DNA from: a candidate division WOR-3 bacterium
GTDB taxonomy: Bacteria > Hydrothermota > Tepidihabitantia > SM23-42 > JAOAFX01
Direction of reading: 5' to 3'
DNA length: 64,000 nt
Assembly: GCA_037443805.1 (NCBI GenBank)
Contig: JBBINQ010000005.1
Span: 9,607 to 73,606, forward strand
Position 1 is the first letter of the stretch, and each line of letters starts with the position of its first letter. The notes under the pieces are model-generated. The model searched no databases. It worked only from the letters and a program-made list of their open reading frames with translations, and was not told the origin of the DNA. Positions 43,740-61,428 of this stretch are shown one piece after another. The position numbers and the translations under genes are program-made.

Positions 43740-44576
43740 ATGGCTGATTTTGAGATTAATTTAAAGGAATTTAATCTTTCTGATATACTACAATTTCTTA
43801 CTTACTTGAAAAAAAGCGGTGTGGTCAGAGTAAGCGGTGAATTGAATGGTGAGATATATCTAAGAGATGGCAATATTGTGCATGCAACCGATGGCACAGA
43901 AAAAGGATTTGAATCATTGCTCAATCTTTCCCTGGTCAATCTTGAACGGGCAGTTTTTGAAGCAGGAATAAAGGCGACCGAACACACAATTTCTGAGGAT
44001 GTGGGAAAATTGACCGAAACTATTGAAAGGCGAAGGATTGAATTTGAGCAGATTAAGGAACATTTGCCACCACGCGATGCAGTGCTTGCAAAATCAACAA
44101 AAGAATTACCGAGTGCGGTTGCCCTGCGCCGAACTGACTGGCAGGTTCTGGCAATGGTTGATGGCAAAAGGACCATTAATGAAATTATTGCCCAGTCAAA
44201 ATTGGGTGGATATGAAACCATAAAGACCATTATCTGGCTAAAAGAACAAGGTTTGATTTACGACCCGAGGGAAGCAGAGAGATTAATGGCTGGTTTGATT
44301 CATTATTTAAATGCATTTTTTAAAATTTTTGGCAAACATGGTTTGAATTGGTTCAGAAGATGGTGCGAGCAAAATTCGCAAGAACAAGCATTGAGCTCGG
44401 CACTGAAGGTAAATGAAGATACCTTTGAGATTGTTGTGCAGAATCCAATGTCCCAGGAGCAGATTGATGAGTTCAGAAAAAAGTTTGATAAGTTTATTGA
44501 TACAGAAGGTCCTCTGGTCTATGGAAAATTACTGTTCAAGAAAAAACTTGAAGAGTTCCGTGCCGAATTGAAATAG
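43740..44576 (+). CDS. DUF4388 (PATAN-like) + winged-helix domain protein
   Basis: FEINLKEFNLSDILQFL..LKKSGVVRV..GEIYLRDGNIVHA; wHTH-like DWQVLAMVDGKRTINEII...LKEQGLI; ATG directly follows the upstream TAG. Confidence 0.78.
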   Translation: MADFEINLKEFNLSDILQFLTYLKKSGVVRVSGELNGEIYLRDGNIVHATDGTEKGFESLLNLSLVNLERAVFEAGIKATEHTISEDVGKLTETIERRRIEFEQIKEHLPPRDAVLAKSTKELPSAVALRRTDWQVLAMVDGKRTINEIIAQSKLGGYETIKTIIWLKEQGLIYDPREAERLMAGLIHYLNAFFKIFGKHGLNWFRRWCEQNSQEQALSSALKVNEDTFEIVVQNPMSQEQIDEFRKKFDKFIDTEGPLVYGKLLFKKKLEEFRAELK

Positions 44577-44589
44577 AAAGGAGTGGTGA

Positions 44590-45375
44590 ATGGAGATATT
44601 GGATAAGATACCAGGCGTAATAAATTATGCTGTGGTCAATGCCGAGGATGGCTCAATTGAGAAGATAAAAGGTTCGTCAACTTCACCGATTGGTGACCTC
44701 ACTGCATTCTTCTCCTCGGCAGCAGAGGTGATAAAAAATACGCTGGGACTGGGTGAAATAAATTTTGTATCACTCTGTTACGGCGCAAATCGTTTGATAA
44801 TATTTATTCATAATAATAAGTATCTTGGTATTGAAGTAGAGCGAGAGGCAAAACCCTCTGAGGTGATTGAAAAGATAAAGGCTCAGTTGTCTTTGATTGG
44901 AGAAGAGAAAAAAGAGGTGGTGATAGAAGAGAAAAAGGAAGAAGTAGAAGAAAAGGTCGTGGAAAAAGAAGAGCGACCAGAGGTTCAGGTTGTTGAGGAG
45001 AAAGTAGTTGAAGAGGTTAAACCAGCCCCGGCTCCAGTCAAAGAAGAGATTAAATTACCAAGGAGCATCGGTTCAAAATTGATGCAGATAAATCTGTTGA
45101 TTGATGAATTTGGAAGCGGTGGTAAAAAGGCACACTGGCTTGATATTCTAAATCAAGGTCTGGGCGTAATTGCCACAGATATTCTGCCCATTGTTGGTAT
45201 CATTGGTGAAAAAATGGAATTCAAACAGAATCCACCTCTGGAAAAAGAAGATGACATTGTTCAGATACTGAGAACACTGATTGATTTTCTGGTCAAAAAA
45301 GCAGTGGAAGAAATAGGTTCTTCTCAGGCACGGGTAAAAGTTCAGGCAGTCATTGAAAAGATGAAACAATTGTGA
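44590..45375 (+). CDS. Roadblock/LC7-like domain + E/K/V-rich linker + C-terminal helical domain
   Basis: About 100-aa alpha-beta domain (KIPGVINYAVVNAEDG...LIIFIHNNKYLGIEV), low-complexity linker EEKKEVVIEEKKEEVEEKVVEKEE. Confidence 0.6.
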   Translation: MEILDKIPGVINYAVVNAEDGSIEKIKGSSTSPIGDLTAFFSSAAEVIKNTLGLGEINFVSLCYGANRLIIFIHNNKYLGIEVEREAKPSEVIEKIKAQLSLIGEEKKEVVIEEKKEEVEEKVVEKEERPEVQVVEEKVVEEVKPAPAPVKEEIKLPRSIGSKLMQINLLIDEFGSGGKKAHWLDILNQGLGVIATDILPIVGIIGEKMEFKQNPPLEKEDDIVQILRTLIDFLVKKAVEEIGSSQARVKVQAVIEKMKQL

Positions 45376-45379
45376 GGGG

Positions 45380-45976
45380 GTGAATGCTATGAATGAAGAA
45401 ATATTGAATAAGATTGAGGAGCGTGGTCTGGGTCTACCTTTTGTTGTAAAAAAAGATGGCGAGACCATTACTTCGCATAGTGGAGAAACAAATAAAGCAA
45501 AGTTTTCTCAAACTGGCACTGTTCTATTTGAATCTATTGGCGCAGTGGGTGGAATAAAGATTGATGTCATTGAAATTGTAGGAAGTAATCAGAGCCTGCT
45601 CTGCGATATTTCTGAAGAAGAGTTGATCGGGCACATCTATGCGACATCCCAGATGTCCATACTTGATAATATCTGGAATGCGATAAAAGATATAAGGGCA
45701 AAACAAAAAGAAGAGGTTGTTGAAGTAGAGAAACCCAAAGAGAAATTTGCACCTGAATTTCTTGAGCAATTGAAGGCGATTGTCCAGGATTATCTTGGTG
45801 ATTTTACAGAAAGGGTTTATCAGAATCAACTCAAAGCACAGCGCATAAAGATTGAAGAACTTTATGAAGAGGATCTGAGAAGGTTCATCTTTGCACTTGG
45901 CAAGGCAGCGGGAATGATTATTGGTCCGACAAAAGGTAAGGATTTGACCAACAAACTTCTTGCAAAATTAAAATGA
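45380..45976 (+). CDS. Roadblock/LC7-like domain + helical C-terminal domain
   Basis: Beta-hairpin/helix pattern FVVKKDGETIT...VLFESIGAVG...IEIVGSNQSLL; start could be 45389. Confidence 0.5.
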   Translation: MNAMNEEILNKIEERGLGLPFVVKKDGETITSHSGETNKAKFSQTGTVLFESIGAVGGIKIDVIEIVGSNQSLLCDISEEELIGHIYATSQMSILDNIWNAIKDIRAKQKEEVVEVEKPKEKFAPEFLEQLKAIVQDYLGDFTERVYQNQLKAQRIKIEELYEEDLRRFIFALGKAAGMIIGPTKGKDLTNKLLAKLK

Positions 45977-46074
45977 TAAGATATAATCAGTATCAGAGAT
46001 GGAAATTTGAAATCTGGAATCTCATTAGAATTTCTATAACCGGATTTGGAACTTAAAAAAATATAGGAGGTTCT

Positions 46075-46443
46075 ATGTCCTTAATATTATTTTCTGCACC
46101 ATTCGGGATAGAAGAGTCAACCTATCAGGCACTGGCAATAATCCCGAACTATGTGCTGGTAGTTGGTGCAATTTTATTATGGCTCGCCTTCATTTTTTTG
46201 GGAATCATTGCGCGCCGTTATGAAATTGTGCTCGGTGAAAAGACCAACTGGCAGTTTATGGTTATTGCACCCACAGGTATTTTGCTCTTTGCTTTGATCC
46301 AATTGATATTTTGCGGAATAGGCGGCAAGATGATGTTGCCCAAAGGCGGTATAAATTATCTTGCATATGGCTTATTCTTTCTCTCAGGAATTCTCTCGGT
46401 TGTGGCAAACTTAAAATTTTATGGAGTCACTAAGGGAAAATAG
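46075..46443 (+). CDS. Small 3-TM membrane protein
   Basis: SD AGGAGG; three hydrophobic helices; LGIIARRYEIVLGEKTNWQF. Confidence 0.72.
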   Translation: MSLILFSAPFGIEESTYQALAIIPNYVLVVGAILLWLAFIFLGIIARRYEIVLGEKTNWQFMVIAPTGILLFALIQLIFCGIGGKMMLPKGGINYLAYGLFFLSGILSVVANLKFYGVTKGK

Positions 46444-46452
46444 GGAGGTTTT

Positions 46453-46803
46453 ATGAGGGCAGATTTAATTGCGGAAATTATTTTTATTGTGGCAATATTG
46501 CTTGCCATTATTTCGCTTATCATCTTCGGCCTTATCTTGAAGAGGCTCCTCAATTTAATAGGTGGAAAGGGCATCTGGGTCTTTCCTTTGATTGGCTGTC
46601 TATTTCTGGTCGCAATGGCGGTATTCCATTTATATCGTATTATCTTCTACTTTCCGCTCTTGAGCGTTGCTGGTCCAGGCGACCTTTTTGATTTAATCAT
46701 TGGTTCTCTTGCCCTTGCTCGGTATGAAAGTTTTCTCTTTCTTGGTGCCGGTCTTTTCCCATTGATTGGTGGGATACTTTATTATAGTGCAAGTTCAAAA
46801 TGA
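46453..46803 (+). CDS. Small 3-TM membrane protein, probable paralog of 46075-46443
   Basis: SD GGGAGG; FGLILKRLLNLIGGKGIWVF aligns by eye with the neighbour. Confidence 0.72.
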   Translation: MRADLIAEIIFIVAILLAIISLIIFGLILKRLLNLIGGKGIWVFPLIGCLFLVAMAVFHLYRIIFYFPLLSVAGPGDLFDLIIGSLALARYESFLFLGAGLFPLIGGILYYSASSK

Positions 46804-46806: not shown

Positions 46807-46834
46807 TTGACATTTTCCATAAAATAATTATAAT
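46807..46834 (+). promoter_or_regulatory. exbB operon promoter (TTGACA-N16-TATAAT)
   Basis: Both hexamers perfect; SD AAAGGAGG before ATG 46862. Confidence 0.8.
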
Positions 46835-46861: not shown

Positions 46862-47485
46862 ATGATCAGGGAATTTTCTATTGGCGGTGGTGTGATGTGG
46901 TTGTTATTGATTTGTATCATTTTAGCATTGGGCATTGTTCTTGAGCGTCTTTTTTCTCTTTTAATAAAAATAAGACTGAATCCAAAGAGTTTTTTGGAGA
47001 AACTTATTTCAACGATTGATGCCCAGGGTCTTGATGCAGGTATAGCTTTATGTGACCAGACAGCTTCACCCGCAGCAAAGATTGCCAAAGTGATATTAGA
47101 AAAAGGAGATAAAGGCAAGGATGCAATGGAAGAGGTGGCGGCGCGTGCTGCCGCAATTGAACTCGCTTTTTTAGATAGAGGAATGGCGCTACTGGCGGGT
47201 TTGACCACGGTTGCCCCATTTCTTGGATTCTTAGGAACAGTAACAGGTATGATTCGTGCATTTGCAGCAATTGCTATGGCAGGCGAGGTTGAGCCTACAA
47301 TTGTTGCCAGTGGTATTTCTGAGGCATTGATCACAACCAAATGGGGTTTGATCATTGCAACTCCACTCGCTATTCTCCATATTCTCTTTACGGGTAAAGT
47401 GGATGGGTATACAAAAGATATGGAAGAAGTTGCTGCGGGTTTGATTGATTATATGATTGAGCATTATCCCAAAAGGAAAAAATAG
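46862..47485 (+). CDS. exbB: MotA/TolQ/ExbB proton channel protein
   Basis: APFLGFLGTVTGMIRAF, GISEALITTKWGLIIA. Confidence 0.92.
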   Translation: MIREFSIGGGVMWLLLICIILALGIVLERLFSLLIKIRLNPKSFLEKLISTIDAQGLDAGIALCDQTASPAAKIAKVILEKGDKGKDAMEEVAARAAAIELAFLDRGMALLAGLTTVAPFLGFLGTVTGMIRAFAAIAMAGEVEPTIVASGISEALITTKWGLIIATPLAILHILFTGKVDGYTKDMEEVAAGLIDYMIEHYPKRKK

Positions 47486-47950
47486 ATGGAATTGAGGCAA
47501 AAGAAAAAATATCAAGCCGCTATTCCTACTGCCTCAATGGGTGATATTGCATTTTTGATCATCATTTTCTTTATGACCACAACTGTTTTTACCAGGGAAA
47601 AAGGTATCAAGATGCTTCTACCTGAAAAAACCGAGACTGAGACCAAGGTCAAACCAGAGAATGTTGTTTCAATTCTGATAAATCCTGAAGGTGCATTAAA
47701 ACTGAGGGCAACGGGTTATGATGGAATTGACATATCTCCCCAGCAATATAGTGAAGTGCGAAGAATCGTTGAAGAAAAGCTCTTAGAAAGGGATACTTTA
47801 CTCGTAGTCTCCTTGAAAACGAGTAAAGATGCCCAATACCAGGCAATGATAGGAGTGCTTGACCAGATAAAGCTCGCAAAAGTGGTCACCCAGGATGGCA
47901 GAGAATTAAAGGCAAATAAAATAAGTCTTATCCCAACGAGTGAGGAATAA
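47486..47950 (+). CDS. exbD: ExbD/TolR family protein
   Basis: IPTASMGDIAFLIIIFFMTTTVF with conserved Asp. Confidence 0.9.
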   Translation: MELRQKKKYQAAIPTASMGDIAFLIIIFFMTTTVFTREKGIKMLLPEKTETETKVKPENVVSILINPEGALKLRATGYDGIDISPQQYSEVRRIVEEKLLERDTLLVVSLKTSKDAQYQAMIGVLDQIKLAKVVTQDGRELKANKISLIPTSEE

Positions 47951-48366
47951 TGCGTAAAAGTATTATCAGAAGGTTTACCAGAACACCTGAAATTCCTACT
48001 GCCTCAACTGCTGATGTTGCCTTTCTTTTAATACTTTTCTTTATGGTCACTACGGTGTTCAGGGCAACTTCCCTTAATCTAAAGATTGTGCTGCCCAAGG
48101 CAAAGTCTACAGAAAGGATTCTTATCCGCAGGAATATTACCCATATCTGGGTTGATAATAATGGTCGTGTATTTATTGATGATAGCCTTGTTCCCAAGGA
48201 ACGGGTCAGTTCAAAGATATCGCCCAAGGTTGCGGAAAATCCTGAGCTGGTTACAATCTTAAATATCCATAGCGATATTGAATATGGCACAGTAGATGTG
48301 ATACTTGACCAATTAAAAGAGTCCCGGGCATTTAAGATTACATTTGCTACAGAATTTGGAGGATGA
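47950..48366 (+). CDS. exbD: Second ExbD/TolR family protein
   Basis: IPTASTADVAFLLILFFMVTTVF; LPKA. Confidence 0.9.
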   Translation: MRKSIIRRFTRTPEIPTASTADVAFLLILFFMVTTVFRATSLNLKIVLPKAKSTERILIRRNITHIWVDNNGRVFIDDSLVPKERVSSKISPKVAENPELVTILNIHSDIEYGTVDVILDQLKESRAFKITFATEFGG

Positions 48367-48367
48367 G

Positions 48368-48976
48368 ATGCGTGACCATAAATTGATGTATGGGGTATAT
48401 TTCCGCACAGGAATGTTTATCGGTATAATTTTGTTGATTCTACTATTTCTGTTCTTGCCCTATGCTGAGGTAGAACCTTATAAATTGAGAAAAGAGGTTG
48501 TGACAATGGTGGAAGAGATTTCTGCGGAGATTGAAAAGTATGAAGAACCTCCACCAGTGGAGAGGCCAAAGGTTGCGGTTGCTGCTGCTCCATCTGAAGT
48601 TACTGAGGAGGCGGTTGAGACCATTGCCGCAACTGAATTTCGGGAGGATATCATTAGAACCCAGCCCACGGGTCCGGAAATAGAGATTGTTCCTTATTTT
48701 AAGGTAGAGGTAAAACCACAACCTATCTCAATGCCTGCACCAGAATGGCCCGAACTTGTAAAAAGAGCAGGCATTGAAGGTAGTCTACAAGTGAAGTTTT
48801 TGGTGAATGTTGATGGCACTGTTATGGATGTCCAGATTGTGAAATCCAGCGGTAATCAGTTACTTGATGAGGCAGCAGTGGCGAGTGTATGGAAATATAG
48901 ATTTACTCCGGCAAAACAGCGTGATAAACTCGTAAGGGTATGGGTCTTTAGAAAAATAGAATTTAAATTTAAGTAA
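48368..48976 (+). CDS. tonB: Energy transducer TonB
   Basis: TM anchor, Pro-rich linker EEPPPVERP, TonB_C GIEGSLQVKFLVNVDG...LDEAAVASVWKYRFTPA; start ATG 48368. Confidence 0.9.
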   Translation: MRDHKLMYGVYFRTGMFIGIILLILLFLFLPYAEVEPYKLRKEVVTMVEEISAEIEKYEEPPPVERPKVAVAAAPSEVTEEAVETIAATEFREDIIRTQPTGPEIEIVPYFKVEVKPQPISMPAPEWPELVKRAGIEGSLQVKFLVNVDGTVMDVQIVKSSGNQLLDEAAVASVWKYRFTPAKQRDKLVRVWVFRKIEFKFK

Positions 48977-48982
48977 TTATCC

Positions 48983-49010
48983 TTGACAATTTTTATTTTT
49001 TTAATATAAT
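48983..49010 (+). promoter_or_regulatory. Promoter of lipoprotein-TBDR-PorV operon (TTGACA-N16-TATAAT)
   Basis: Both hexamers perfect; about 75-nt leader with two SD-like motifs. Confidence 0.78.
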
Positions 49011-49087
49011 ATTTATATATAGAAAGGGGGTGGGACATTAAAAAAAATCGCTTAAAACTAAATAACATAAAAGAAAAGGAGGATTAA

Positions 49088-50122
49088 ATGATAAGGCTGA
49101 AATGGCTAAGTCTATTAGCAATTTTAACATTGGTGTTTGTAAGTTGTGGTAATGAACCACCAGAGGAGTTCTATAATGGAACACCACAGGACGATACATT
49201 GATTAATGCATTGCTTGATGCGAATTCTGAATATCTTATAACCGATGATTTATTTTTAGATACGTATAGCCGGATTGATTCGTTTGTAGTAAGCTTCCCA
49301 GTAGCAGATTCATATTTTAAAACAGAATCAATTCTGGTTAAACAACATCTGGATAGTTTGAGTGAAAAAATCGCATCAAGTGCTCGTTTTAAGGACCTCT
49401 GGTATACCAAAGATACTACCTGCACAGTGTATCTCTTTGATACATTTAACATAATACAGGAGGTCCATTATGACCGATTATACAAAGGTTATTATTTCTG
49501 GCAGGGCGATACATCCAAGAAACTGGATACAGTGATCGTTGAAGCCACTTCAGGTTATTATTCTTATGATACAATAACTGTAGAGGGGCTTCGCCATATT
49601 TATGTTGAACCAGTAAAAGAAAGGGTTTGGGATGAGGAACTTCAGGATTCGGTCTGGAAGATAAAAGAGCCAAGAGAATGGATTTTGAAGAGAATTTCCT
49701 ATGGAAACTATGGATTGCCAAATCGGGGCGCAGGAATTCCTGAGATCGATTACGCTATAGTAACTTCTAATAATACCTCAAAAGTTGATACCATCTGGGC
49801 ATCAAATACAGATACTCTCTATCAACATCATGCAATGAACCGTTTCTGCGCAATAGATTCGCTGTTAGAATATGATGCGGGTGATACTTTGACAATTTCA
49901 CTGACCCTTTCCGGAACAATTACAAGTGACCTCTGCTCATTCTTTGCCATTCAGGATGGTAAGAAAGTTCAACTTATTGGTGGTTCAGGTAAGATTGCCA
50001 TTACTGGTTCTGGCGTGAAAAATCTTGTATTTGTGGCGATTGTCAACGATGGATTATGCTATGTAAAGCCTGCCAGCCCATTACTTGCAAGATTCTGGCT
50101 TATACCCATAAGGGTTAATTGA
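49088..50122 (+). CDS. Hypothetical lipoprotein (344 aa)
   Basis: Lipobox VFVSC; SD AAGGAGG; beta-rich, many DT/DS motifs. Confidence 0.75.
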   Translation: MIRLKWLSLLAILTLVFVSCGNEPPEEFYNGTPQDDTLINALLDANSEYLITDDLFLDTYSRIDSFVVSFPVADSYFKTESILVKQHLDSLSEKIASSARFKDLWYTKDTTCTVYLFDTFNIIQEVHYDRLYKGYYFWQGDTSKKLDTVIVEATSGYYSYDTITVEGLRHIYVEPVKERVWDEELQDSVWKIKEPREWILKRISYGNYGLPNRGAGIPEIDYAIVTSNNTSKVDTIWASNTDTLYQHHAMNRFCAIDSLLEYDAGDTLTISLTLSGTITSDLCSFFAIQDGKKVQLIGGSGKIAITGSGVKNLVFVAIVNDGLCYVKPASPLLARFWLIPIRVN

Positions 50123-50133
50123 GGAGGTGTATA

Positions 50134-52902
50134 ATGAAAAAATTATTGGCGTTAATCCTTACCACTGCATTTTTGTTCGGTGCAGAGTATGGTAAAATTA
50201 CTGGTAAGGTGAGGGACGCTGAAACCGGTGAACCATTGATCGGTGCTGATGTGATTGTAGAAGGAACAGAACTTGGTGCCGCAACAGATGAAAAGGGTGA
50301 TTATGTGATTCTCTATGTTCCTGCAGGAACCTATGTGGTTACCGCATCATATTTAGGTTATGACCCATATACTTATACCCAGGTGATTGTCAATGCTGAC
50401 CAGACTACAAATCTCAATTTCAGATTAAAACCTACAGTAATTGAAGTAGAAAAGGTTACGGTTGTTGCTGAAAAACCACCAATTGTTGCCTCCCAGGTCC
50501 AGAGTGGACATTCAGTTACATCGCAAGATATATCCCGTCTACCCGTGACCACAATCAACCAGGTGGTTACCCTCCAGGCAGGCGTATCCACATCAAATCT
50601 TGGTACACATATTCGTGGTGGCAGGCCCGAAGAGGTAACTTATTATGTGGATGGTATTATGACCAAGGTTCCACACACAGGTGCGCAATCAACCCAGATA
50701 AATGCCTCAGCAGTAGAAGAGGTAACAGTTGTCAGTGGTGGTTTTGATGCAGAATATGGTGAAGCACTTTCAGGAATTATCAATGTTGTGACCAAAGAGG
50801 GTGGAACAAAACCATCAGGTAGCTTTAGGTACTTGACCGATGAGGTATTTGCAATGGATGCGCTCAAAGACAAACTGAATACTGGTTATAATTTCTATGA
50901 CCTATCACTGGGTGGTCCTTTACCTGCTTTGTCCAGATTGAAATATTTCCTCTCTGGTGAATTAACATTGACAGATGCTTATGCAGAGGCATTATATAAG
51001 GTTCCTTCACCAAGGAATACATATCGTGCTCAGGGCAGATTCTCCTATACAATGCCCAATAATAAAGGTAAGATTACCTTGAGTGGATTTAATTCAAGGG
51101 ACCAGTATGTGACCTGGTCATCAGGAAATTTAAAATACTTCCAGAATAGACCAATGAGCAGGACCAAGAACTATATTCTCTCTTCCACATTCAATTATAT
51201 GCTCACGGCAAAGACCCTTTTGACAGTTAAGGGCGGTATGACACACTATGATAGAGTATATGGCAACCGTGATTATGCCTGGGAAGATTCTGCGGGTCAT
51301 GGGTGGTATGACGATTATCGTTTCAAAGCAGAACATTGCATAAAGTATCTTACTAAAGATTTACTTCCGCCCAAGGATGTTATCGTGGATAGTGTAATGC
51401 AATACCATACTGAGTATACAAACCGTGATGTGGATGCATTACGCAACAATCCCTATGGCGTTGAAGGTATGTATTATACCTATGGCGACTATCGTGTATG
51501 GAGATACTGGCAGAATGATGATATCCAGGCAAGGTTTGACCTTTCCCATGCAGTGGGTAAGGTTCATGAATTCAAAACTGGTGTTGACTATGTAGGATAC
51601 AACCTGAAATATTATGATAATAACCTTCCCTGGGTCACGAATCCATTCTGGGATTATTATGAGCGACAGCCCTATAAGGTTGCAGCGTATGTTCAGGACA
51701 AAATGGATTTTGAAGGTTTGATTGCACGGCTTGGACTGAGATTTGATTATTTTGACCCCAAGAGTTGTACCTACAAAGTTCCAAATGACCCAAGGAATGA
51801 TACCCTTGCATATGCAGACAAGAGTTATCGTGTTTCTCCGCGTATTGGTTTTTCTCTACCAGTTACTGAACGGATGAAATTCCGTTTCAATTATGGACAT
51901 TATTTCCAGTTACCCGCACTTGATGATATGTTCAGCACAACTGATACAGCAGTGATAAGGCTTGCACTCTCTCGCGGTAATACAATTATAGGAAATATCT
52001 TTATGAAGCCAGAAAAGACTGTGCAGTATGAGGTCGGTATTGAAAATCAGTTCACACAGGATGTAGTAATGGGATTTACTGCGTATTTCAAAGATGTGTA
52101 TGACCTGTCTCAGATTCGTGAAGTTATTGCATTGCCAATGCCATACTTCCAGTTCTTTAATGTTGACTACGGAAATATCAAAGGATTTGAAATAAGGTTA
52201 GATAAGACAATGTCCAATATGTGGGCATTTGGTCTCAGTTATACGCTCCAGTTTGCCAAAGGGACTGCCTCTTACGCAGGTGAGTTCTATTATGACTTCT
52301 ATTATGGTGGTACTGACCCGATTACTGGATTACCATTACAGCCACCAGTAATTGATTACTGGCTTGATTTTGATGAACGGAATATCGTGAATGCGAACCT
52401 GGACCTCCAACTGCCTTCTGATTTTGTTTTCATCCCATTGCAGGATTTAAACTCATCATTTGTATTCTCATACCATTCAGGCCATCCATACACGCCCCTT
52501 GACCTGAGAGGAAATAAGACAGGTGATGAGAATTCTGCAAGGATGCCTGGTTGGTGGAATGTTGATATGAATGCAAGTAGATTGATAAAGATTGGTCCAG
52601 TAAAATTCACCTTAACCGCACTCGTTAATAATCTCTTTAATTCAAGACAAATAGTAGAGGTATATCAGACATCTGGTGACCCTGATGACCATGGTGACCC
52701 AGAACCTACCCTGACTCAGTTTGGAACCCTGACCATTGGTTCAAGTCGCTATTCGCCACAGGCTGATTATAATCATGATGGTATTATGACACCACCTGAG
52801 CAGAAAAAAGCTTATATTGCAGCAAGAACCGATTATTATCTTGACCCAACAAATTATAATGGTCCATTCAGGGTTCAGATCGGTATTGGTTTAGGATTTT
52901 AG
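50134..52902 (+). CDS. TonB-dependent outer-membrane receptor with N-terminal carboxypeptidase-regulatory-like domain
   Basis: GKITGKVRDAETGEPLIGADV, plug IRGGRPEEVTYYVDG, GGFDAEYGEALSGIINVVTKEG, MKPEKTVQYEVG, C-terminal QIGIGLGF; start ATG 50134. Confidence 0.9.
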   Translation: MKKLLALILTTAFLFGAEYGKITGKVRDAETGEPLIGADVIVEGTELGAATDEKGDYVILYVPAGTYVVTASYLGYDPYTYTQVIVNADQTTNLNFRLKPTVIEVEKVTVVAEKPPIVASQVQSGHSVTSQDISRLPVTTINQVVTLQAGVSTSNLGTHIRGGRPEEVTYYVDGIMTKVPHTGAQSTQINASAVEEVTVVSGGFDAEYGEALSGIINVVTKEGGTKPSGSFRYLTDEVFAMDALKDKLNTGYNFYDLSLGGPLPALSRLKYFLSGELTLTDAYAEALYKVPSPRNTYRAQGRFSYTMPNNKGKITLSGFNSRDQYVTWSSGNLKYFQNRPMSRTKNYILSSTFNYMLTAKTLLTVKGGMTHYDRVYGNRDYAWEDSAGHGWYDDYRFKAEHCIKYLTKDLLPPKDVIVDSVMQYHTEYTNRDVDALRNNPYGVEGMYYTYGDYRVWRYWQNDDIQARFDLSHAVGKVHEFKTGVDYVGYNLKYYDNNLPWVTNPFWDYYERQPYKVAAYVQDKMDFEGLIARLGLRFDYFDPKSCTYKVPNDPRNDTLAYADKSYRVSPRIGFSLPVTERMKFRFNYGHYFQLPALDDMFSTTDTAVIRLALSRGNTIIGNIFMKPEKTVQYEVGIENQFTQDVVMGFTAYFKDVYDLSQIREVIALPMPYFQFFNVDYGNIKGFEIRLDKTMSNMWAFGLSYTLQFAKGTASYAGEFYYDFYYGGTDPITGLPLQPPVIDYWLDFDERNIVNANLDLQLPSDFVFIPLQDLNSSFVFSYHSGHPYTPLDLRGNKTGDENSARMPGWWNVDMNASRLIKIGPVKFTLTALVNNLFNSRQIVEVYQTSGDPDDHGDPEPTLTQFGTLTIGSSRYSPQADYNHDGIMTPPEQKKAYIAARTDYYLDPTNYNGPFRVQIGIGLGF

Positions 52903-52908
52903 GAGGCT

Positions 52909-55869
52909 ATGATGAAAAAGACACTGGCAATTTTACTATTGTTGGCTATTATAGCCTTTGCCAGAACGGCGGTGCCAAATAATCAATACCGTCCGTTCGA
53001 AATAAAGACCCATAATATTAATAACATAGAAATGTGCGTGTCAAACTATGGAAAGTTTGGCCAGACACAGGCTGGCAATGCTGGTCTCTGGTGGCCCAAA
53101 GGTAGTGGAGAGAATTATATCTTTGGTGCAGGTCCCTGGTTTGGTACAATTGTTGGTGATGATACGCTCGTAACAATCGGTTATGGTCCACATGGTGGTG
53201 AGGCTGAATATGTTCCAGGATTAAAAGATATGTCTACGGGTGACCCCAATGCACAAATTTATATGTATCCATCGCCCTGGCCACCTCCTGCTGATGTATT
53301 CCCAATGGCACCACAGGTATCAAAGTCTCATCAGGATTCCTGGTGTGCATATAATGACCTTGATGCAAGTTATCACATACCGGGTGATACAAGACCTATC
53401 GGACTTGAAGTGTATCAAACAGTCTATGCCTGGAATTTGAGCACGACCGCAGATATCATTTTTATAAGATACGAACTAAAGAATGTAAGTGGAAGCAAAC
53501 TTACTAATTGCTATTTCGGGGTCTGCACTGATAATGATATTGGTAATGAAGCAGGCACAAATGCGAATGATATTATCAGCGGTATTGTCTGGCAGGAGTA
53601 CCAGATTGGTACTGAACTTGATACGATTGATAATCTTGGATACCAATGGCAGACCGAGGATGAGCCTGGCTGGGATGATGTGGGCGCAATCGGTTTTGAC
53701 TATCTTCAGAGCCCCTGGGATTTAAAAGAGAATCAGGATAAAGATAATGATGGTATACTTGACCAGTATGAAAGGGACAGTGCGTATTATGTAGATAATC
53801 TACCCCAGACACAATGGGATGTTGATGGTGACGGCACACCTGACTGGCGCGACCCATCGCAAATTCCCCAGTTAGGTATGACTGCATTCAAGCGGTTTAC
53901 CCTCAATCTTGAGCCGAATAAAGATAATGAGAGGTATGTGACCCTTGCCGGATATAATTTTAAAACCGGTGAATATACGCCATTTGATACGATTCCTCCA
54001 CAACCTGATGACCAGAGATTCTTACAATGCAGTGGACCCTTTGAATTGGAAGCGGATTCAATCGCTATCGTGCTTGTCGGTGTTATGTGCACTTACTGGC
54101 CCAGAGGTGTTGTTGAGCGTCCTGATACCGCACTGGCGAAAGTTGATAAGACGGTTCAATATATCTATAATATGAACTGGCTCTTACCTGGTCCGCCTCC
54201 ACCTCCAACCCTGACCTGTATTCCTGGTGATGCAAAGGTTACTCTAATCTGGGACAATGTTTCAGAGACTACACCTGACCCATACTATGAGGTCGTGAGC
54301 AAACCCGGACCAAATAATGACCCTTACTACAAAAAATACGATTTTGAAGGTTATCGTGTCTGGCGCAGTCCAACAGGCAAGACTGGTACCTGGAAATTAT
54401 TGGCATCATTTGACCTGGCAAACGGTATCACATTTACAGATACATCTGCTCCTGAATCAATTGCCTTGAGTGCAACTGATGTCGGCCTGACCCATTCTTA
54501 TACAGATACTGATGTGCGTAATGGGTTTGGTTACTATTATGCAGTAACTGCGTTTGACTACAATTATGTGAAGAGCACATTTGATTCCATTTATCTTGAT
54601 ACATTCTATGTCCAGCCCGGTGGTGACACAGTATGGGACTATGATACAATCCAAGTTGAAGGTCCAATGCCAATCTATTATGAAAGCGGACAGGTTCCAA
54701 TTACTGCTACTCCACGCCGTGACCCGGCAGATTACAGAGAAGGTTCATTTACTGTGGAATTAGTGAATGGAAATGAGAGATTGGTCTCAAATCTTAGTGC
54801 GAAGATTGTCTATCCATTGAATATGACCGAAGACCCGCAATTCTTTAAATTTGGTCCGATTGTAAGGGATACTATTACCGGATACCCAATCTATTCTGCT
54901 TTCTTATGTGATAAAGACACAGTGCCGCTGGATAGCTTTAAAGTTACTATGCCCCTTGATACTTTTGCCCATACCTACTTCTATGAGTTTAAAGAATATA
55001 ATGGTATAAGTGTGACTCCGTGGTTTATCAAAACCAAGGCAAAAGGTAGCATAGTGATATTTGATACAATCATTAAGGAAGCAGGAAGTACATATCCGGA
55101 TACGCTACTTTCATTAAGCTCTTCAATTGTAGGTAGGGCAATAAACTGGGCATATCGGGGTAATGACTTTAAAATAATCTGGAAGAAAAAAGATCCTGCA
55201 GGCGAGGTTAATACAATAACTGTGATTGACCTCCAGACAGGTGATACAATTCCATTTAAACCATATACTGAATCTACGGATACAAGTTCATTGGCTGATG
55301 GTTGGTGTTTCCGTTCACTCACGCAATCCACTGATACACTCGTTTATGGAAATGCTTCAACCGGAACCAGGACTATCTATATTTGCAGTGGTAAGATTGG
55401 TATTGCCAAAGGATGGTTCAATGTTGGTGGCGAACCCAGGCCTTCAGAAAATGATGTCTGGACTGTCAGGGCATCAGATGCTTATGTGCCAGCGCCATTC
55501 AAATCCACATTTGCCATTCATCCTTCTCCAGCAGGAATCCTGACCGATACAACCATCACGCTTAATGTCAAGGTTGTTCCTAATCCATATCTGATTCATA
55601 ATGAATGGCAGCAGTCTTCACTCATCAGGAGATTGCGTTTCATTAATCTCCCCAGCGAATGCACGATAAGGATATTTACGCTTAACGGCGATTTGATTAA
55701 AACGATTAAACACAATGCGACGATCGGCTCAGTTCAGGGTGATGCTGGCGGAGATGAGTGGTGGGACCTTCTGACTGAAAATAGACAGCTTGTGGCAAGC
55801 GGTGTTTACATCTTCCATGTTGATTCCAAGGTTGGTGAACAGGTCGGTAAATTTGTTGTTATCCGATAG
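52909..55869 (+). CDS. 986-aa exported protein with FN3-like module and T9SS-CTD-like C-terminus
   Basis: Signal peptide, HNINNIEMCVSNYG, DxDxDG Ca-binding motifs, GDAKVTLIWD...YYYAVTAFD, C-terminal VKVVPNPY...IRIFTLNGDLIKT...VASGVYIFHV...GKFVVIR. Confidence 0.78.
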   Translation: MMKKTLAILLLLAIIAFARTAVPNNQYRPFEIKTHNINNIEMCVSNYGKFGQTQAGNAGLWWPKGSGENYIFGAGPWFGTIVGDDTLVTIGYGPHGGEAEYVPGLKDMSTGDPNAQIYMYPSPWPPPADVFPMAPQVSKSHQDSWCAYNDLDASYHIPGDTRPIGLEVYQTVYAWNLSTTADIIFIRYELKNVSGSKLTNCYFGVCTDNDIGNEAGTNANDIISGIVWQEYQIGTELDTIDNLGYQWQTEDEPGWDDVGAIGFDYLQSPWDLKENQDKDNDGILDQYERDSAYYVDNLPQTQWDVDGDGTPDWRDPSQIPQLGMTAFKRFTLNLEPNKDNERYVTLAGYNFKTGEYTPFDTIPPQPDDQRFLQCSGPFELEADSIAIVLVGVMCTYWPRGVVERPDTALAKVDKTVQYIYNMNWLLPGPPPPPTLTCIPGDAKVTLIWDNVSETTPDPYYEVVSKPGPNNDPYYKKYDFEGYRVWRSPTGKTGTWKLLASFDLANGITFTDTSAPESIALSATDVGLTHSYTDTDVRNGFGYYYAVTAFDYNYVKSTFDSIYLDTFYVQPGGDTVWDYDTIQVEGPMPIYYESGQVPITATPRRDPADYREGSFTVELVNGNERLVSNLSAKIVYPLNMTEDPQFFKFGPIVRDTITGYPIYSAFLCDKDTVPLDSFKVTMPLDTFAHTYFYEFKEYNGISVTPWFIKTKAKGSIVIFDTIIKEAGSTYPDTLLSLSSSIVGRAINWAYRGNDFKIIWKKKDPAGEVNTITVIDLQTGDTIPFKPYTESTDTSSLADGWCFRSLTQSTDTLVYGNASTGTRTIYICSGKIGIAKGWFNVGGEPRPSENDVWTVRASDAYVPAPFKSTFAIHPSPAGILTDTTITLNVKVVPNPYLIHNEWQQSSLIRRLRFINLPSECTIRIFTLNGDLIKTIKHNATIGSVQGDAGGDEWWDLLTENRQLVASGVYIFHVDSKVGEQVGKFVVIR

Positions 55870-55878
55870 GAGGCAAAA

Positions 55879-56991
55879 ATGAAAAGGTACCTAACAATAA
55901 GCCTGATATTATTAATTCCCCTGTTTGCAGATTTTGCAAAACTCGGGACATCAGGTGCCCAGTTTTTAAAGATCGGTGTGGGTCGTGGGACAGCAATGGG
56001 TGAGGCATTTGTTGCTATTTCTGATGATGCCTCAGCAACCTACTGGAACCCGGCTGGACTGGGTATTCTGAATAATCGTCAGATTGCACTCCAGCACAAT
56101 GAATGGATTGCTGATGTGAAACACGAATACCTTTCACTTGCAGTACCCCTTTCAAATATGGGAACGCTCGGATTCAGTCTCACTGCCCTGACAATGGGTA
56201 AGATGGAATATACCACGGTTGATGACCCAACTACTTATACTGTAAGAGAAGATACTGGAACCGGAACTTTTTTCAATGCCTCTGACTTTGCCCTGGGAAT
56301 CTCATTTGGCAGGATGTTTACTGACCGTCTTGCTGCAGGTTTTACAATAAAGGCAATCCAGGAGATGATCTGGGATATGTCTGCATCAGGTATTGCTACG
56401 GATTTTGGCATTCACTACAATACTGGTTTTAAGGGTTTGAAGATTGCAGCGTCAATGGCAAATTTTGGTTCAGATATTTCCTTTGGTGGCAGGCAGTTAG
56501 ATCAATCAGTAAGTCCTTTCCCAGATTCGCCAATTGATTATGAGCCGATTCCTATTACTCTAAAGACCACGCCGTTTCCATTACCACTAATCTTCAGATT
56601 TGGTCTGGCAATGAATCCAGTAGAGAATGAATCTCAGCGATTGACTGTTGCCCTTGATTTGAACCATCCAAATGATAACTACGAAACGATAAACTTGGGA
56701 TTTGAATATGGTTATTTAAATACCATATTCCTGAGAACTGGATACAAAGTATACCTGAATATGGACTATATGAAGGCAATGACCGGTGCTGAACCTGTAT
56801 ATGATTCTGTGGCAGAAAAATACACCTATCCAAACTGGGGTGAGAATACTGAATGGCTGTTGAATAATCTCTGTGCTGGTGTAGGATTCAATCTCAAAAT
56901 GGCTGAGCGAGAACTGCACATTGATTATACTTATATGAATAAAGGTGTCTTCAAAGCGACGCATCGTATTGGGTTACTGATCGGATTCTAA
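55879..56991 (+). CDS. porV: PorV/PorQ (UPF0164)-family outer-membrane beta-barrel
   Basis: GAQFLKIGVGRGTAMGEAFVAISDDASATYWNPAGL, DFGIHY, INLGFEYGY, C-terminal HRIGLLIGF. Confidence 0.8.
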   Translation: MKRYLTISLILLIPLFADFAKLGTSGAQFLKIGVGRGTAMGEAFVAISDDASATYWNPAGLGILNNRQIALQHNEWIADVKHEYLSLAVPLSNMGTLGFSLTALTMGKMEYTTVDDPTTYTVREDTGTGTFFNASDFALGISFGRMFTDRLAAGFTIKAIQEMIWDMSASGIATDFGIHYNTGFKGLKIAASMANFGSDISFGGRQLDQSVSPFPDSPIDYEPIPITLKTTPFPLPLIFRFGLAMNPVENESQRLTVALDLNHPNDNYETINLGFEYGYLNTIFLRTGYKVYLNMDYMKAMTGAEPVYDSVAEKYTYPNWGENTEWLLNNLCAGVGFNLKMAERELHIDYTYMNKGVFKATHRIGLLIGF

Positions 56992-57003
56992 GAAAGAAAA
57001 ATA

Positions 57004-57036
57004 GGGCGGGGTTCTGATTTTTCAGAACCCCGCCCC
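57004..57036. other. Perfect 14-bp intra-operon hairpin without a plus-strand U-tract
   Basis: GGGCGGGGTTCTGA-TTTTT-TCAGAACCCCGCCC. Confidence 0.8.
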
Positions 57037-57048: not shown

Positions 57049-59697
57049 GTGATGAAGAAAATTTTCGTATTGTCAGTATTAGTGGGCTTATGCTTAGGCT
57101 CTGATTTTATCCCGAGGGATAAGATTGAGACTATTGCCCATAAATTCATTAATCAAAGATATGGTTCTTCATACATACTTAAAGATATTATTACTTATTT
57201 TGGGGTAGATGAAGAACCGAATGCCTATGGTTTTGTTTTTCAGAATCAGGAGCAAAATATCACAATAATAATGGGAGCAAGGTATACTACATCACCAATC
57301 GGTGAGGTATACCAGGGGAGTCCATATTGTCAGAGGTTTTATAATCGTGCATTAGAATATTTGAGAACAAAAGCAATTGATAAATCAGAATTCAAACATT
57401 ATTACTATTTTGGAGCAGGAGAAGAGTATGCGGGTTTTGAATCAGGCGGAGAAAAACTTTTGATTAACTTAAGGAATTTCCAGATACGGACAGGTGAAGA
57501 TTTGATAAAATGTTCACCCGACCCGGTTCTTGAATCATTAACCCGTGAAAAGTGGGAACGGTATCTAAGCATTAGTGACTTTAGTACACGCCAGGGCGGT
57601 TATGTTGATTCTGTGCCTTTTATTGATTGGGTTTATGGCTGCTCGCCTACTGCTGCCTCAATGATATTCTGGTACTGGGATTATCGTGGTTATGGAAAAC
57701 TCGTTGACCATTTTTACACACACTGGGATACACCTGAGAATGAATGGAATGATTGTGCTAATACAAATCGGGAACTTGCTTTGGCAATGTATACTGATAC
57801 TACTACCGGTGGCACAACTATAGGTAATATCAGACCAGGAATGATTACAGTTGCCAATTCCTATAATGGCTACTCCTGTTCAGGTTCAACATCGCCTCAG
57901 GGCGGTTCCTGGAATCAGTATAATTTTTCCTGGATAAAGACTGAAATAGATGCCCAGAGGCCCTGCCACTGGAATGTGCTTTATTATTGGTATCCACCAA
58001 TGTCTGATTACATAAATCATTCTATAACTGGTGTAGGATATGAAATTACCAGTAGCGATACATTCATAATTGTTCATACAACCTGGGATAATGACGAACC
58101 ACTCTGGCCATTATGGACATATTACAATGGAGTATATTGCTATGATTATGTCGTAACCTTTTTACCTGGTGGTTCAAATCCAAACAATATCATTCTTGAT
58201 TATCCCAGGGGTGGTGATGTTTATAATCTACCCGTAATGTTTAAGAATCTGAAATACAGATTACGGTGGCATACTGAGGGGACTAATATTGACCATATAA
58301 AGATGTGGTGGTCAAAGGGCACTGATGCTGATGGATATGATTCTCTGCGCTGGACATTGATTGGCAATAATATTCCCAATACTGGGCAATATATCTGGAC
58401 CTGTCCATCTATCAGCTGTTCTCTCAGGGTCAATATCAGTGCACTGGATGGAAGTAATGTTAGACTTGCCGCAGATGGCAGTTTTGGTAGAGTTCAGGTA
58501 AGGGAATTGAATCATTCAGCAAATGTAAACCTTATAGGACACTATGATACACCAGGTTGGGCAAATGATGTGATTGTTATAGGAAACTATGCCTACATCG
58601 CAGATGGCACAAATGGTTTGTTTATCATAGATGTCAGTGATTCTACACTACCTGATTATGTGAACAAGGTTAGCCTGCCTGGTAATTCAGGAACAATTAT
58701 TGGAACAGCTCAATATCTATATATTGGTGACCGTGAAGATACTTTACGAATTCTTTCTCTCTCCAACCCTACCAATCCATCACAGGTTGGAAAATTGGCT
58801 TTTACTGATGATGTGCTCGGGCTATATATATCAGGGAATATCCTTTATGTTGCAGCCCGTTCACAGGGTTTAGTTATTGTTGATGTTTCAAACCCATCAA
58901 ATCCTGTGAGTCTTGGAACATTTAATACCACAGGATTTGCCTATGATGTAGTTGTTGAAAATAATCTTGCCTTTGTTGCTGATGCTACAAAAGGTGTGCG
59001 GATAATAGATGTCTCAACACCATCAAATCCAGTTGAAACCGGTTACTATGATACAAATGGCATTACCTATGCAGTGGCAAAATCAGGCAATTATATTTAT
59101 GCAGCAGATGGCACCGCGGGCATAAAGGTTTTTGACGGTTCAAGCCCTGATACTCTTTTGCTTTTAGGTTCTCTTGATACACCAGGAACAGCATCGGGTA
59201 TTCAATACTTCAACAACCATATTTTTGTCGCTGATGGCACAATGGGTGGAATAAGGGCAATAAATGTATCAAACCCATCTGCTCCTTCAGAAACAGGATA
59301 TATACTTTCCCTCAGCACAGCGACCGCCCTTTATTTGAGAAATAATCTGGTCTATCTACCTGATGGCAACACTGGAGTGCTTATTATTAAACAGGATATC
59401 GTGGGTATAGAAGAGAGGAGTATGACCGGATTAATCAATGCACTCAATCTCTTTCCTCAGCCAGCAAAGCAGGGTAATGGTATCCGCATCCATTTTGCGA
59501 CGGTTAAAGAGACCGATGGCGAAATTTATGTTCTTGACATTACAGGAAGAAAGGTCTCCACAATCTATGAAGGTAGATTTGTAAAAGGGAATAATGAATT
59601 CTCCTGGAGACCCGATGCATTGGCAGCCGGTGTTTATTTTATATCGGTCAAAACCAATACTGAAAAAATGTTTGGTAAGATACTTATAGTAAAATAA
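57049..59697 (+). CDS. Papain-like (C10/C39-like) cysteine peptidase + LVIVD repeats + T9SS type A sorting domain
   Basis: Prodomain, catalytic-like YGCSPTAASM and NHSITGVGY, repeated YAYIADG.GL.IIDVS.P..P units, CTD LFPQPA...VLDITGRKV...LAAGVYF. Confidence 0.8.
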   Translation: MMKKIFVLSVLVGLCLGSDFIPRDKIETIAHKFINQRYGSSYILKDIITYFGVDEEPNAYGFVFQNQEQNITIIMGARYTTSPIGEVYQGSPYCQRFYNRALEYLRTKAIDKSEFKHYYYFGAGEEYAGFESGGEKLLINLRNFQIRTGEDLIKCSPDPVLESLTREKWERYLSISDFSTRQGGYVDSVPFIDWVYGCSPTAASMIFWYWDYRGYGKLVDHFYTHWDTPENEWNDCANTNRELALAMYTDTTTGGTTIGNIRPGMITVANSYNGYSCSGSTSPQGGSWNQYNFSWIKTEIDAQRPCHWNVLYYWYPPMSDYINHSITGVGYEITSSDTFIIVHTTWDNDEPLWPLWTYYNGVYCYDYVVTFLPGGSNPNNIILDYPRGGDVYNLPVMFKNLKYRLRWHTEGTNIDHIKMWWSKGTDADGYDSLRWTLIGNNIPNTGQYIWTCPSISCSLRVNISALDGSNVRLAADGSFGRVQVRELNHSANVNLIGHYDTPGWANDVIVIGNYAYIADGTNGLFIIDVSDSTLPDYVNKVSLPGNSGTIIGTAQYLYIGDREDTLRILSLSNPTNPSQVGKLAFTDDVLGLYISGNILYVAARSQGLVIVDVSNPSNPVSLGTFNTTGFAYDVVVENNLAFVADATKGVRIIDVSTPSNPVETGYYDTNGITYAVAKSGNYIYAADGTAGIKVFDGSSPDTLLLLGSLDTPGTASGIQYFNNHIFVADGTMGGIRAINVSNPSAPSETGYILSLSTATALYLRNNLVYLPDGNTGVLIIKQDIVGIEERSMTGLINALNLFPQPAKQGNGIRIHFATVKETDGEIYVLDITGRKVSTIYEGRFVKGNNEFSWRPDALAAGVYFISVKTNTEKMFGKILIVK

Positions 59698-61384: not shown

Positions 61385-61400
61385 GGATATTTTCTTTTAC

Positions 61401-61428
61401 AAAAAGGGGGCATTTATGCCCCCTTTTT
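61401..61428. terminator. Bidirectional intrinsic terminator between convergent genes
   Basis: AAAAAGGGGGCA-TTTA-TGCCCCCTTTTT. Confidence 0.88.

Follow-up and report, generated by a model that had tools for sequence, protein, structure and literature searches.

A 64,000-nucleotide (nt) stretch of DNA from a candidate division WOR-3 bacterium (GenBank assembly GCA_037443805.1, contig JBBINQ010000005.1, positions 9,607 to 73,606 of the forward strand; hereafter the window) raises the question why the genes for a lipoprotein, a TonB-dependent receptor, a secreted protein of 986 amino acids (aa) and an outer-membrane barrel of the PorV/PorQ family are encoded in one operon behind a set of Ton motor genes (Table 1). 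We propose that the four-gene operon and the motor form a TonB-energised uptake module whose capture protein is exported via the type IX (T9SS) secretion system and held on a cognate PorQ-like barrel, a reading to which we give an even chance of being correct. It is favored because receptor and barrel are linked to the 986-aa protein in an all-or-none manner, the spacing of the genes appears coupled, the motor is adjacent, and the 986-aa protein ends in a PorZ-like, unusually conserved tail.

The initial annotation of this locus, which was made from the nucleotide sequence, had named an exbB-exbD-exbD-tonB cluster followed by a lipoprotein/receptor/986-aa protein/barrel operon. This composition was borne out by the listing of open reading frames (ORFs) and by hidden Markov model (HMM) scans, which recovered all eight genes with their claimed domains on the plus strand. 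The genes fall into two blocks, the Ton genes (46862-48976) and a separate four-gene operon (49088-56991), in which lipoprotein, TonB-dependent receptor, 986-aa secreted protein and PorV/PorQ-family barrel follow each other at intergenic distances of 11, 6 and 9 nt. With a MotA/ExbB-type channel, ExbD proteins and a TonB_C protein in one operon, the first block encodes an ExbB-ExbD-TonB motor; neither Pal nor TolB was found near these genes, and the fourth protein of the Ton operon matches TonB_C, not TolA. The same exbB-exbD-exbD-tonB arrangement was present directly 5' of the module in close as well as several distant relatives.

The conservation of this gene order was surveyed in 50 non-duplicate full-length relatives of the 986-aa protein from genome records and in 46 evaluable ORFs from metagenomes, an independent sample that was seeded from distant members with a narrower alignment, which together yielded 87 evaluable loci; taxon labels were taken from the records of the metagenome-assembled genomes (MAGs). 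Both flanking genes were present at 74 of the 87 loci, neither at 12, and the receptor alone at a single one. Among the genome records, the receptor gene was located directly 5' and the barrel gene directly 3' in 36 of 50 cases, mostly with gaps of 9-16 nt, while five relatives were clearly solo and nine were not judgeable due to contig ends. The metagenomic ORFs exhibited the same pattern, with both neighbors in 38, only the receptor in one, only the barrel in none and neither in seven of the 46 cases. The triad was kept down to about 25-35% identity and was found in WOR-3, Stahlbacteria and Edwardsbacteria (L086), and a 3.7-kb Latescibacterota fragment (L076) carried a receptor together with a relative of the 986-aa protein, so that the arrangement is indeed syntenic in other genomes. 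In a TA06 MAG and in another one from Latescibacterota (L032 and L087), relatives of the 986-aa protein occurred without the module, and the closest genome match was a WOR-3 MAG (L006) with a 96% identical orthologue. The whole module was tandemly duplicated at four loci (L084, L093, L117 and L157). Genomes contained one to several modules, each with a variable middle region in the 986-aa protein, a copy number that resembles the diversification of uptake loci more than a single-copy machine. The description of the barrel as dedicated has to be qualified, since neither barrel nor receptor adjoins about 14% of the full-length paralogues and all of the short ones apart from a few that follow a PorV-family barrel. 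On three complete MAG chromosomes (CP070664.1, CP070686.1 and CP070834.1; loci L037, L048 and L049) the ORF of the 986-aa family located 3' of the receptor was truncated (468-785 aa) and was not followed by a detected barrel gene; these shortened ORFs may represent assembly frameshifts or genuine decay of the module.

As judged from its sequence, the 986-aa protein ends in a divergent T9SS-type C-terminal domain (CTD). When the tail of this family was compared by hhalign to the CTDs of two neighboring Por_Secre_tail cargos and their orthologues, the profiles aligned end to end with 97% probability (E 1.2e-10), spanning the PNP, GxY and terminal K-x-x-V-I-R/K motifs. The AlphaFold2 (AF2) model placed seven strands within residues 894-984. 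A CTD homology at the C-terminus, a signal peptide and a seven-strand sandwich characterize the protein as a T9SS CTD protein in the broad sense, while the curated PF18962/TIGR04183 cut-offs that define type A CTDs were not reached; the T9SS-CTD-like end recognized by the initial annotation therefore holds as homology to type A CTDs but not as membership by these models. Tail matches among 49 homologues (NCBIfam) were to PorZ (38 of 49), TIGR04183 (18 of 49, all at E<=0.01, best 3e-4) and PorU (13 of 49), and only one of the 49 matched PF18962; at NCBI, some homologues are named 'T9SS type A sorting domain-containing protein'. The PorZ model NF052228 itself aligned to the 986-aa protein over tail positions 673-746 only (18 bits, cut-off 260), and an identity as PorZ proper was rejected, as a full-length match was missing and the AF2 model contained no propeller.

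The CTD was also the best conserved segment of the 986-aa protein, with a mean identity of 73% compared to 31-39% for the middle region. Between the same genome pairs, identity ranged from 0.72 to 0.92 for the CTD and from 0.51 to 0.76 for the remainder of the protein, whereas the adjacent LVIVD protein, a cargo of the cleavable type, exhibited the reverse (0.2-0.5 for the CTD, 0.4-0.78 for the passenger). This high conservation, opposite to the pattern of the LVIVD cargo, fits a domain with a lasting and specific binding partner. PorZ and PorU are the two T9SS proteins with uncleaved CTDs that are seated on PorQ and PorV, respectively (PMC10947112). At least three CTD proteins are encoded within the window.

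The barrel encoded by the last gene of the operon belongs to the PorV/PorQ family. It scored 200.8 bits on NF033709 (cut-off 90), with residues 24-370 aligned to model positions 1-326, and its Edwardsbacteria counterpart reached 211 bits on the same model. Scores were below the equivalog cut-offs for PorQ (NF033711, 86 of 220 bits), PorV2 (NF052325, 84.8 of 325 bits) and PorV (NF033710, 49.9 of 250 bits), the best equivalog score being that for PorQ (86 bits compared to 50 bits for PorV), and the sole match among PDB sequences was PorV of F. johnsoniae (6h3i_F, E 0.004). The assignment of a PorV-family barrel in the initial annotation is thus correct at the level of the PorV/PorQ family, but the protein does not qualify as PorV and is nearer to PorQ. 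PorV itself is a FadL-superfamily barrel, and the distinction between FadL-like and PorV-like is therefore a question of subfamily, which is PorV/PorQ in this case. An identity as FadL/Toluene_X transporter (PF03349, 18.4 bits with a cut-off of 29.7) was rejected, as was a BamG-like identity in analogy to BamG-BamH (NF053685, no match at E<=0.1). None of the observations that the initial annotation had named as speaking against its reading, a mismatch to CTD profiles, a FadL-like barrel and a lack of synteny elsewhere, was made.

Several PorV/PorQ-family genes were present in the related loci. In L061 (6195-7934; also in L068 and L075) a 579-aa PorV/PorQ-family barrel (121 bits) was fused to a C-terminal OmpA-like peptidoglycan-binding domain, and the fusion gene in L061 was located directly 5' of a short paralogue consisting of head domain and type A CTD; we know of no described PorV-OmpA fusion. 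A second envelope cluster was present in a WOR-3-type MAG (L002, 13415-21989, minus strand). It encodes a protein of 457 aa whose tail is PorZ-like, a PorQ-like barrel of 434 aa, a tetratricopeptide repeat (TPR) protein of 823 aa, ExbB, two ExbD proteins, a TonB_C protein of 301 aa and a protein of 285 aa. These organisms might have their real pair of the PorQ-PorZ type here, or the cluster may be another display unit linked to Ton genes.

The receptor possesses the plug, TonB_dep_Rec barrel, TonB box and C-terminal aromatic residue of TonB-dependent receptors. Matches were obtained to PF13620 (CarboxypepD_reg, 76.3 bits), PF07715 (plug, 37.9 bits) and PF00593 (barrel, 104.6 bits), the barrel being of the 22-strand type, and the N-terminal extension (residues 27-115) was matched by PF13715 as well (74.8 bits). 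This PF13620/PF13715 extension in front of plug and barrel is the architecture of the Oar class. The TonB-box-like stretch was VEKVTVVAEKPP, with A117 present in 42 of 42 orthologues, and the C-terminus was a normal beta-signal (...GLGF) with the terminal F in 40 of the 42. Membership in the SusC/RagA group was ruled out by a TIGR04056 score of 68.8 bits (cut-off 368.25) with only the N-terminal 380 model positions aligned. The DYNHDG motif that the receptor had been said to end with does exist, and 41 of 42 orthologues conserve it, but it is not terminal; it occupies residues 883-888 of 927 within an EF-hand-like loop (883-894, D-x-N-x-D-G...E894, numbered on the 927-aa ORF).

The lipoprotein represents an unnamed family without a match in the Pfam and NCBIfam scans. 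In 146 homologues, nearly all from WOR-3, Cys20 was invariant and followed by a conserved acidic GNEPPE stretch, and a recognizable lipoprotein gene was located 5' of the receptor in 27 of the 36 genome-record modules. The AF2 model (predicted local distance difference test (pLDDT) score 84.6, predicted template modeling (pTM) score 0.80) was mostly beta with very long strands and an immunoglobulin-like domain at the C-terminus, and its comparison to the PDB by Foldseek yielded nothing significant (best E 0.017, none at E<=0.001). Because the model is mostly beta and the PDB fold match is not significant, the protein is not considered SusD-like; SusE/F-like and hemophore-like identities were likewise dropped for want of a significant fold match in the PDB. 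The absence of SusD noted in the initial annotation was confirmed, since no protein of the operon matched a SusD-family Pfam model and the lipoprotein model lacked a SusD-like fold. The annotation had cast the 986-aa protein as lid or substrate-capture partner of the receptor; for the role of direct cap, lid or partner the lipoprotein is the likelier candidate.

The 986-aa protein itself is organized into an N-domain (about 30-425), an Fn3-like domain (about 431-560), a variable beta region (561-880) and the CTD (886-986), and its AF2 model was all-beta (pLDDT 82.9). The best folds found by Foldseek for the N-domain were the beta-supersandwich domains of GH94, GH116, GH15 and GH65 enzymes as well as the P1 domain of YidC. 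In these glycoside hydrolase families the supersandwich domains precede catalytic barrels and are associated with carbohydrates. An identity as glycoside hydrolase or phosphorylase was rejected, since the TM-score (structural alignment score) was about 0.2 and the (alpha/alpha)6 catalytic barrel was missing from the model. The calcium-binding motifs DKDNDG and DVDGDG pointed out in the initial annotation hold as sequence patterns and were nearly invariant in 49 homologues; they are part of two EF-hand-like loops (D277-K-D-N-D-G-I-L-D-Q-Y-E288 and D304-V-D-G-D-G-T-P-D-W-R-D315) within an insert spanning residues 271-325. Supersandwich fold, calcium loops and variable middle region weakly point to glycan capture as a possible task of the modeled protein. 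Scans of the 986-aa protein and 75 relatives with curated domain models gave only sporadic tail matches (FlgD_ig, Dockerin_1, CHU_C and Por_Secre_tail) and no catalytic domain, and the family profile found only insignificant, antibody-like matches among PDB sequences. The family is large, with 361 homologues in the word index and, in a representative library, 4740 matches at E<=1e-3 and 361 at E<=1e-30, and its head domain is strongly expanded in WOR-3. Tandem arrays of two to three head-domain paralogues, many of them about 520 aa long, were present in L029, L062-L064, L089-L091, L115, L153 and L161, and CP070834.1 alone yielded six head-domain matches.

We thus suggest the following mode of action. 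The ExbB-ExbD-ExbD-TonB motor would energize a four-component nutrient-uptake module in the outer membrane with the receptor as import channel. The 986-aa protein would cross the inner membrane by the Sec pathway and the outer membrane by a T9SS-type route specified by its predicted CTD. Rather than being cleaved, this domain would be kept and would dock the protein non-covalently on the PorQ/PorV-family barrel, in analogy to the PorZ-PorQ and PorU-PorV pairs of Porphyromonas, and the protein probably sits on such an anchor of its own instead of in a SusD-type lid arrangement. Its calcium-binding supersandwich head and variable middle region may capture, and possibly process, a substrate at the cell surface and hand it over to the receptor, while the lipoprotein would more likely be what caps the receptor barrel directly or acts as its partner. 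Gene content, domain identities, operon structure, CTD homology, the pattern of conservation and the all-or-none synteny are what the analysis shows; the physical complex, the retention of the CTD, the direction of transport and the substrate are what we infer from these comparisons.

Several observations weigh against this uptake scheme. Neither PF18962 (E<=0.01) nor TIGR04183 (E<=0.1) matched the 986-aa protein, and the Foldseek matches of its N-domain combined a probability of 1.0 and E values of about 1e-5 with low TM-scores (about 0.2). No ligand site was identified in the 986-aa protein, and a search for known RNA elements including riboswitches in and near the operon leaders, which might have given a clue to the substrate, found none. 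Full-length solo paralogues with the same CTD but no adjacent barrel or receptor made up 12 of the 87 evaluable loci. Short paralogues (about 520 aa), often in tandem arrays, consisted of the head domain and an ordinary type A CTD that passes the thresholds, which shows the head domain to be a secreted unit in its own right; they had no adjacent barrel or receptor except where they followed a PorV-family barrel (L061, L068, L075 and L139). Given these solo and short paralogues, the head domain must be more than an accessory of the receptor, and there is no strict pairing of one barrel with each protein. Moreover, the T9SS core genes (sprA and porKLMN) were not found within the window. They were also missing from the first 85 related loci, where no ORF exceeded 1300 aa, a sample picked around the 986-aa family and not genome-wide, and the lack of SprA therein means little because of this choice.

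The preferred reading has to be weighed against explanations that assign the parts differently. That four unrelated envelope genes are adjacent by chance has a negligible probability and is refuted by the synteny survey, as order and spacing were kept in 74 of 87 loci, which span different candidate phyla and identities as low as 25-35%. The PorZ- or PorU-like tail could instead indicate that the 986-aa protein and the barrel are an analogue of PorZ-PorQ or PorU-PorV, i.e. secretion or attachment machinery that would process or anchor every CTD cargo, with the receptor and the Ton genes being linked for another reason such as envelope biogenesis. The model of the 986-aa protein indeed gave weak Foldseek matches to PorU (6za2) and PorZ (5m11), and one orthologue occupies a very stable neighborhood between two true CTD cargos in nearly every sampled WOR-3 genome. 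However, it is only the tail that matches, the beta-propellers of PorZ and the C25 peptidase domain of PorU are missing, and several diverged or tandem module copies per genome with variable middle regions are atypical of a core machine. A separate pair of PorQ-like barrel and PorZ-like-tail protein exists elsewhere in WOR-3-type genomes (L002), and the barrel was never observed beside a full-length relative of the 986-aa protein without the receptor; we consider this explanation unlikely. An equally low probability is assigned to the 986-aa protein being a surface-coat or adhesin subunit on the PorQ-like barrel, with a receptor that is merely co-regulated and receives no substrate. The size of the family (4740 representatives at E<=1e-3, at least six paralogues from one genome), its all-beta structure with a calcium-binding pattern, the lack of a catalytic domain in the 75 members scanned and the frequency of solo and short paralogues would all suit such a role, but it leaves unexplained why receptor and barrel co-occur all or none across phyla at about 30% identity with gaps of 6-16 nt that suggest coupled translation, and why the Ton operon is recurrently linked.

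The receptor could also work outwards in the manner of Myxococcus Oar, exporting or inserting the 986-aa protein independently of SprA, with the PorQ-like barrel receiving it. Its architecture of PF13620, plug and barrel with TonB box is identical to that of Oar (PMC6434023), the Ton genes lie alongside, and neither the window nor some 2.4 Mb of related loci yielded a T9SS core gene. Those loci were chosen around the 986-aa family, however, so the absence of SprA there carries little weight, and SprA has been reported in phyla of the Fibrobacterota-Chlorobiota-Bacteroidota (FCB) group other than Chlorobiota (PMC12611786). In these genomes, many CTD cargos of the ordinary type A lack a neighboring receptor, and the folded cargo far exceeds the lumen of a plugged 22-strand barrel, which leaves the outward direction improbable. 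In a still bolder version, CTD proteins of these candidate phyla would take a TonB-powered route without SprA, in which the receptor acts as conduit or insertion aid and the barrel takes over the retained CTD. The locus would then be a self-contained device for export and display instead of an importer, possibly related in evolution to the carrier step of the T9SS; this version has a very slight chance of being true.

Two transcription units are predicted, one for the Ton motor and one for the four-gene operon, based on the small gaps within the second unit, the promoter matches and the hairpin at its end. The two perfect sigma-70-like matches occupy the sole two sizeable intergenic gaps; they are consensus matches only, the region-wide number of which was no higher than in shuffled sequences. 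The hairpin between the barrel gene and the following gene (57003-57036) has a U-tract on the minus-strand side only, leaving its role as plus-strand terminator uncertain, and is likely an operon boundary or attenuator.

Table 1. Positions of the module, its signals and other features within the 64,000-nt window
Feature	Position	Strand	Details
Large TPR-repeat proteins (801, 1242, 408 and 677 aa)	3354-9487; 12701-13927; 61481-63514	-; +; -	very large
SRP (signal recognition particle) RNA	14917-15205	+	large bacterial type, 119 bits
Two tRNA genes	25141-25212 and 25276-25358	+	
360-aa protein	40580-41662	+	DUF6754, 394.6 bits; just 5' of small-gene block
Small-gene block	42304-46803	+	seven ORFs; immediately 5' of exbB
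Sigma-70-like promoter match	46807-46834	+	perfect (TTGACA-16-TATAAT), 12/12 consensus; intergenic, 5' of exbB
exbB	46862-47485	+	207 aa; MotA/TolQ/ExbB proton channel, PF01618 87.4 bits; four transmembrane-like segments
exbD, copy 1	47486-47950	+	154 aa; PF02472 64.6 bits
exbD, copy 2	47950-48366	+	138 aa; PF02472 75.8 bits
tonB	48344-48976	+	about 205-210 aa; one N-terminal transmembrane segment; TonB_C PF03544 71 bits; TIGR01352 60.9 bits (cut-off 27.1)
Sigma-70-like promoter match	48983-49010	+	perfect (TTGACA-16-TATAAT); intergenic, 5' of lipoprotein gene
Shine-Dalgarno sequence	49076-49083	+	strong, AAAGGAGG; 5' of lipoprotein gene
Lipoprotein	49088-50122	+	344 aa; unnamed family; signal peptide; lipobox ...FVSC20
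TonB-dependent receptor	50134-52902	+	922 aa from probable start ATG 50134; ORF opens with TTG 50119
986-aa secreted surface protein	52909-55869	+	Sec signal peptide 1-19; no Pfam match
CTD of the 986-aa protein	55564-55866	+	residues 886-986; predicted divergent T9SS type, seven-strand beta-sandwich
PorV/PorQ-family barrel	55879-56991	+	370 aa; outer membrane; signal peptide
Hairpin	57003-57036		15 bp, GC-rich; between barrel gene and next gene
T9SS type A cargo (LVIVD)	57049-59697	+	C39-like peptidase (PF13529), LVIVD beta-propeller (PF08309 146 bits), Por_Secre_tail (PF18962 29.3 bits, TIGR04183 29.2 bits)
T9SS type A cargo	59771-61384	+	537 aa; PF18962 37.6 bits, TIGR04183 41.7 bits
Terminator-like hairpin	61399-61430		3' of the 537-aa cargo gene

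The genes surrounding the module were in part conserved with it. The LVIVD cargo gene following the operon was syntenic with it in most close WOR-3 relatives. Relatives of the 537-aa cargo were often found directly 5' of the receptor in distant modules, and this protein may belong to the system as a looser fifth component. The small-gene block encodes a 273-aa protein with terminal transmembrane segments, a 205-aa protein with five such segments, a 278-aa DUF4388/PATAN protein, two soluble proteins with charged linkers (261 and 198 aa) and two proteins with four transmembrane segments each (122 and 116 aa); only for DUF4388 could a family be assigned. Nearly every close WOR-3 relative, among them one without Ton genes (L005), kept this block in synteny with the module, and the pair of 273-aa and 205-aa proteins often had a second copy 3' on the opposite strand. 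The remainder of the window contains housekeeping genes, i.e. gyrA, dnaX and the genes for alanine racemase and IMP dehydrogenase, in addition to the SRP RNA and the two tRNAs. The large TPR proteins gave weak PorW/SprE-like and BamD-like matches via their TPR repeats only.

Every part of the module is of a known kind, including the Ton motor, the receptor with Oar architecture, the PorV/PorQ-family barrel and the T9SS-type CTD. Neither the 986-aa family nor the lipoprotein family has a curated model, and the literature on WOR-3 with type IX secretion and on PorV with TonB-dependent receptors contained no account of this arrangement that we could find. It is for the fixed set of TonB-dependent receptor, CTD protein and private PorQ-like barrel that we found no description. 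TonB-dependent uptake with surface accessories is known mainly from the SusCD/RagAB systems of Bacteroidota and from the lipoprotein receptors of Proteobacteria. If the proposed module holds true, it would be a third solution, with a capture protein that is displayed via its CTD on a private PorQ-like barrel and not anchored by lipid, and anchoring of the PorQ-PorZ type would be a general display mechanism beyond a one-off detail of the machinery. It would further provide a functional context for a large unnamed family with thousands of representatives and no Pfam model as well as for the unnamed lipoprotein family. WOR-3, Stahlbacteria, Edwardsbacteria and related uncultured phyla are known in their physiology from genomes only. 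For the three named groups, and probably for the related phyla, the locus would serve as a marker of nutrient acquisition.

Among the known systems, SusC/SusD and RagAB of Bacteroidota resemble the module in that a CarboxypepD_reg-extended TonB-dependent barrel is co-transcribed with surface accessories and occurs in multiple diverged copies. Here, in contrast, SusD is absent, the receptor fails the SusC/RagA model, the lipoprotein gene comes first, and one accessory is a CTD protein with its own barrel anchor instead of a lipoprotein. IhtB of Porphyromonas is listed among the T9SS CTD cargos. In the IhtA-IhtB pair, a receptor is likewise co-transcribed with a surface accessory that is thought to pass on the substrate (PMC12094164), but IhtB is a small CbiK-like chelatase that is anchored like ordinary cargo without a dedicated PorQ-like barrel. 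Oar of Myxococcus xanthus, which is needed for the secretion of PopC (PMC6434023), shares the PF13620, plug and barrel architecture with TonB box and a nearby Ton system, a comparison of architecture and not of sequence; unlike the receptor described here, Oar is implicated in the export of PopC and has no known CTD-protein or PorV-family partner. A dedicated barrel that is encoded beside a specific surface protein and holds it, as we infer for the module, is outlined for PorP/SprF-like barrels with type B CTD proteins (PMC9143113) and found in BamG-BamH, where the barrel belongs to the FadL family (PMC12578637; PMC12611786). The present barrel differs from these in being of the PorV/PorQ and not the PorP type, with no match to BamG and no link to BamA, and CHU_C matched only two of 49 homologues of the 986-aa protein weakly, which sets them apart from type B CTD proteins. 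By sequence comparison, the closest precedent is PorQ-PorZ rather than PorV with its cargo. The PorQ-PorZ and PorV-PorU pairs of Porphyromonas gingivalis combine a FadL/PorV-family barrel of the 14-strand type with a surface protein anchored by a retained T9SS CTD (PMC10947112), a retention that would apply to the 986-aa protein as well. In the module, however, neither protein comes near the equivalog cut-offs for PorQ, PorV, PorZ or PorU, the passenger consists of supersandwich, Fn3 and variable beta regions instead of two beta-propellers or a C25 peptidase, and, unlike porQ and porZ, the two genes are adjacent, located inside a receptor operon and present in multiple copies.

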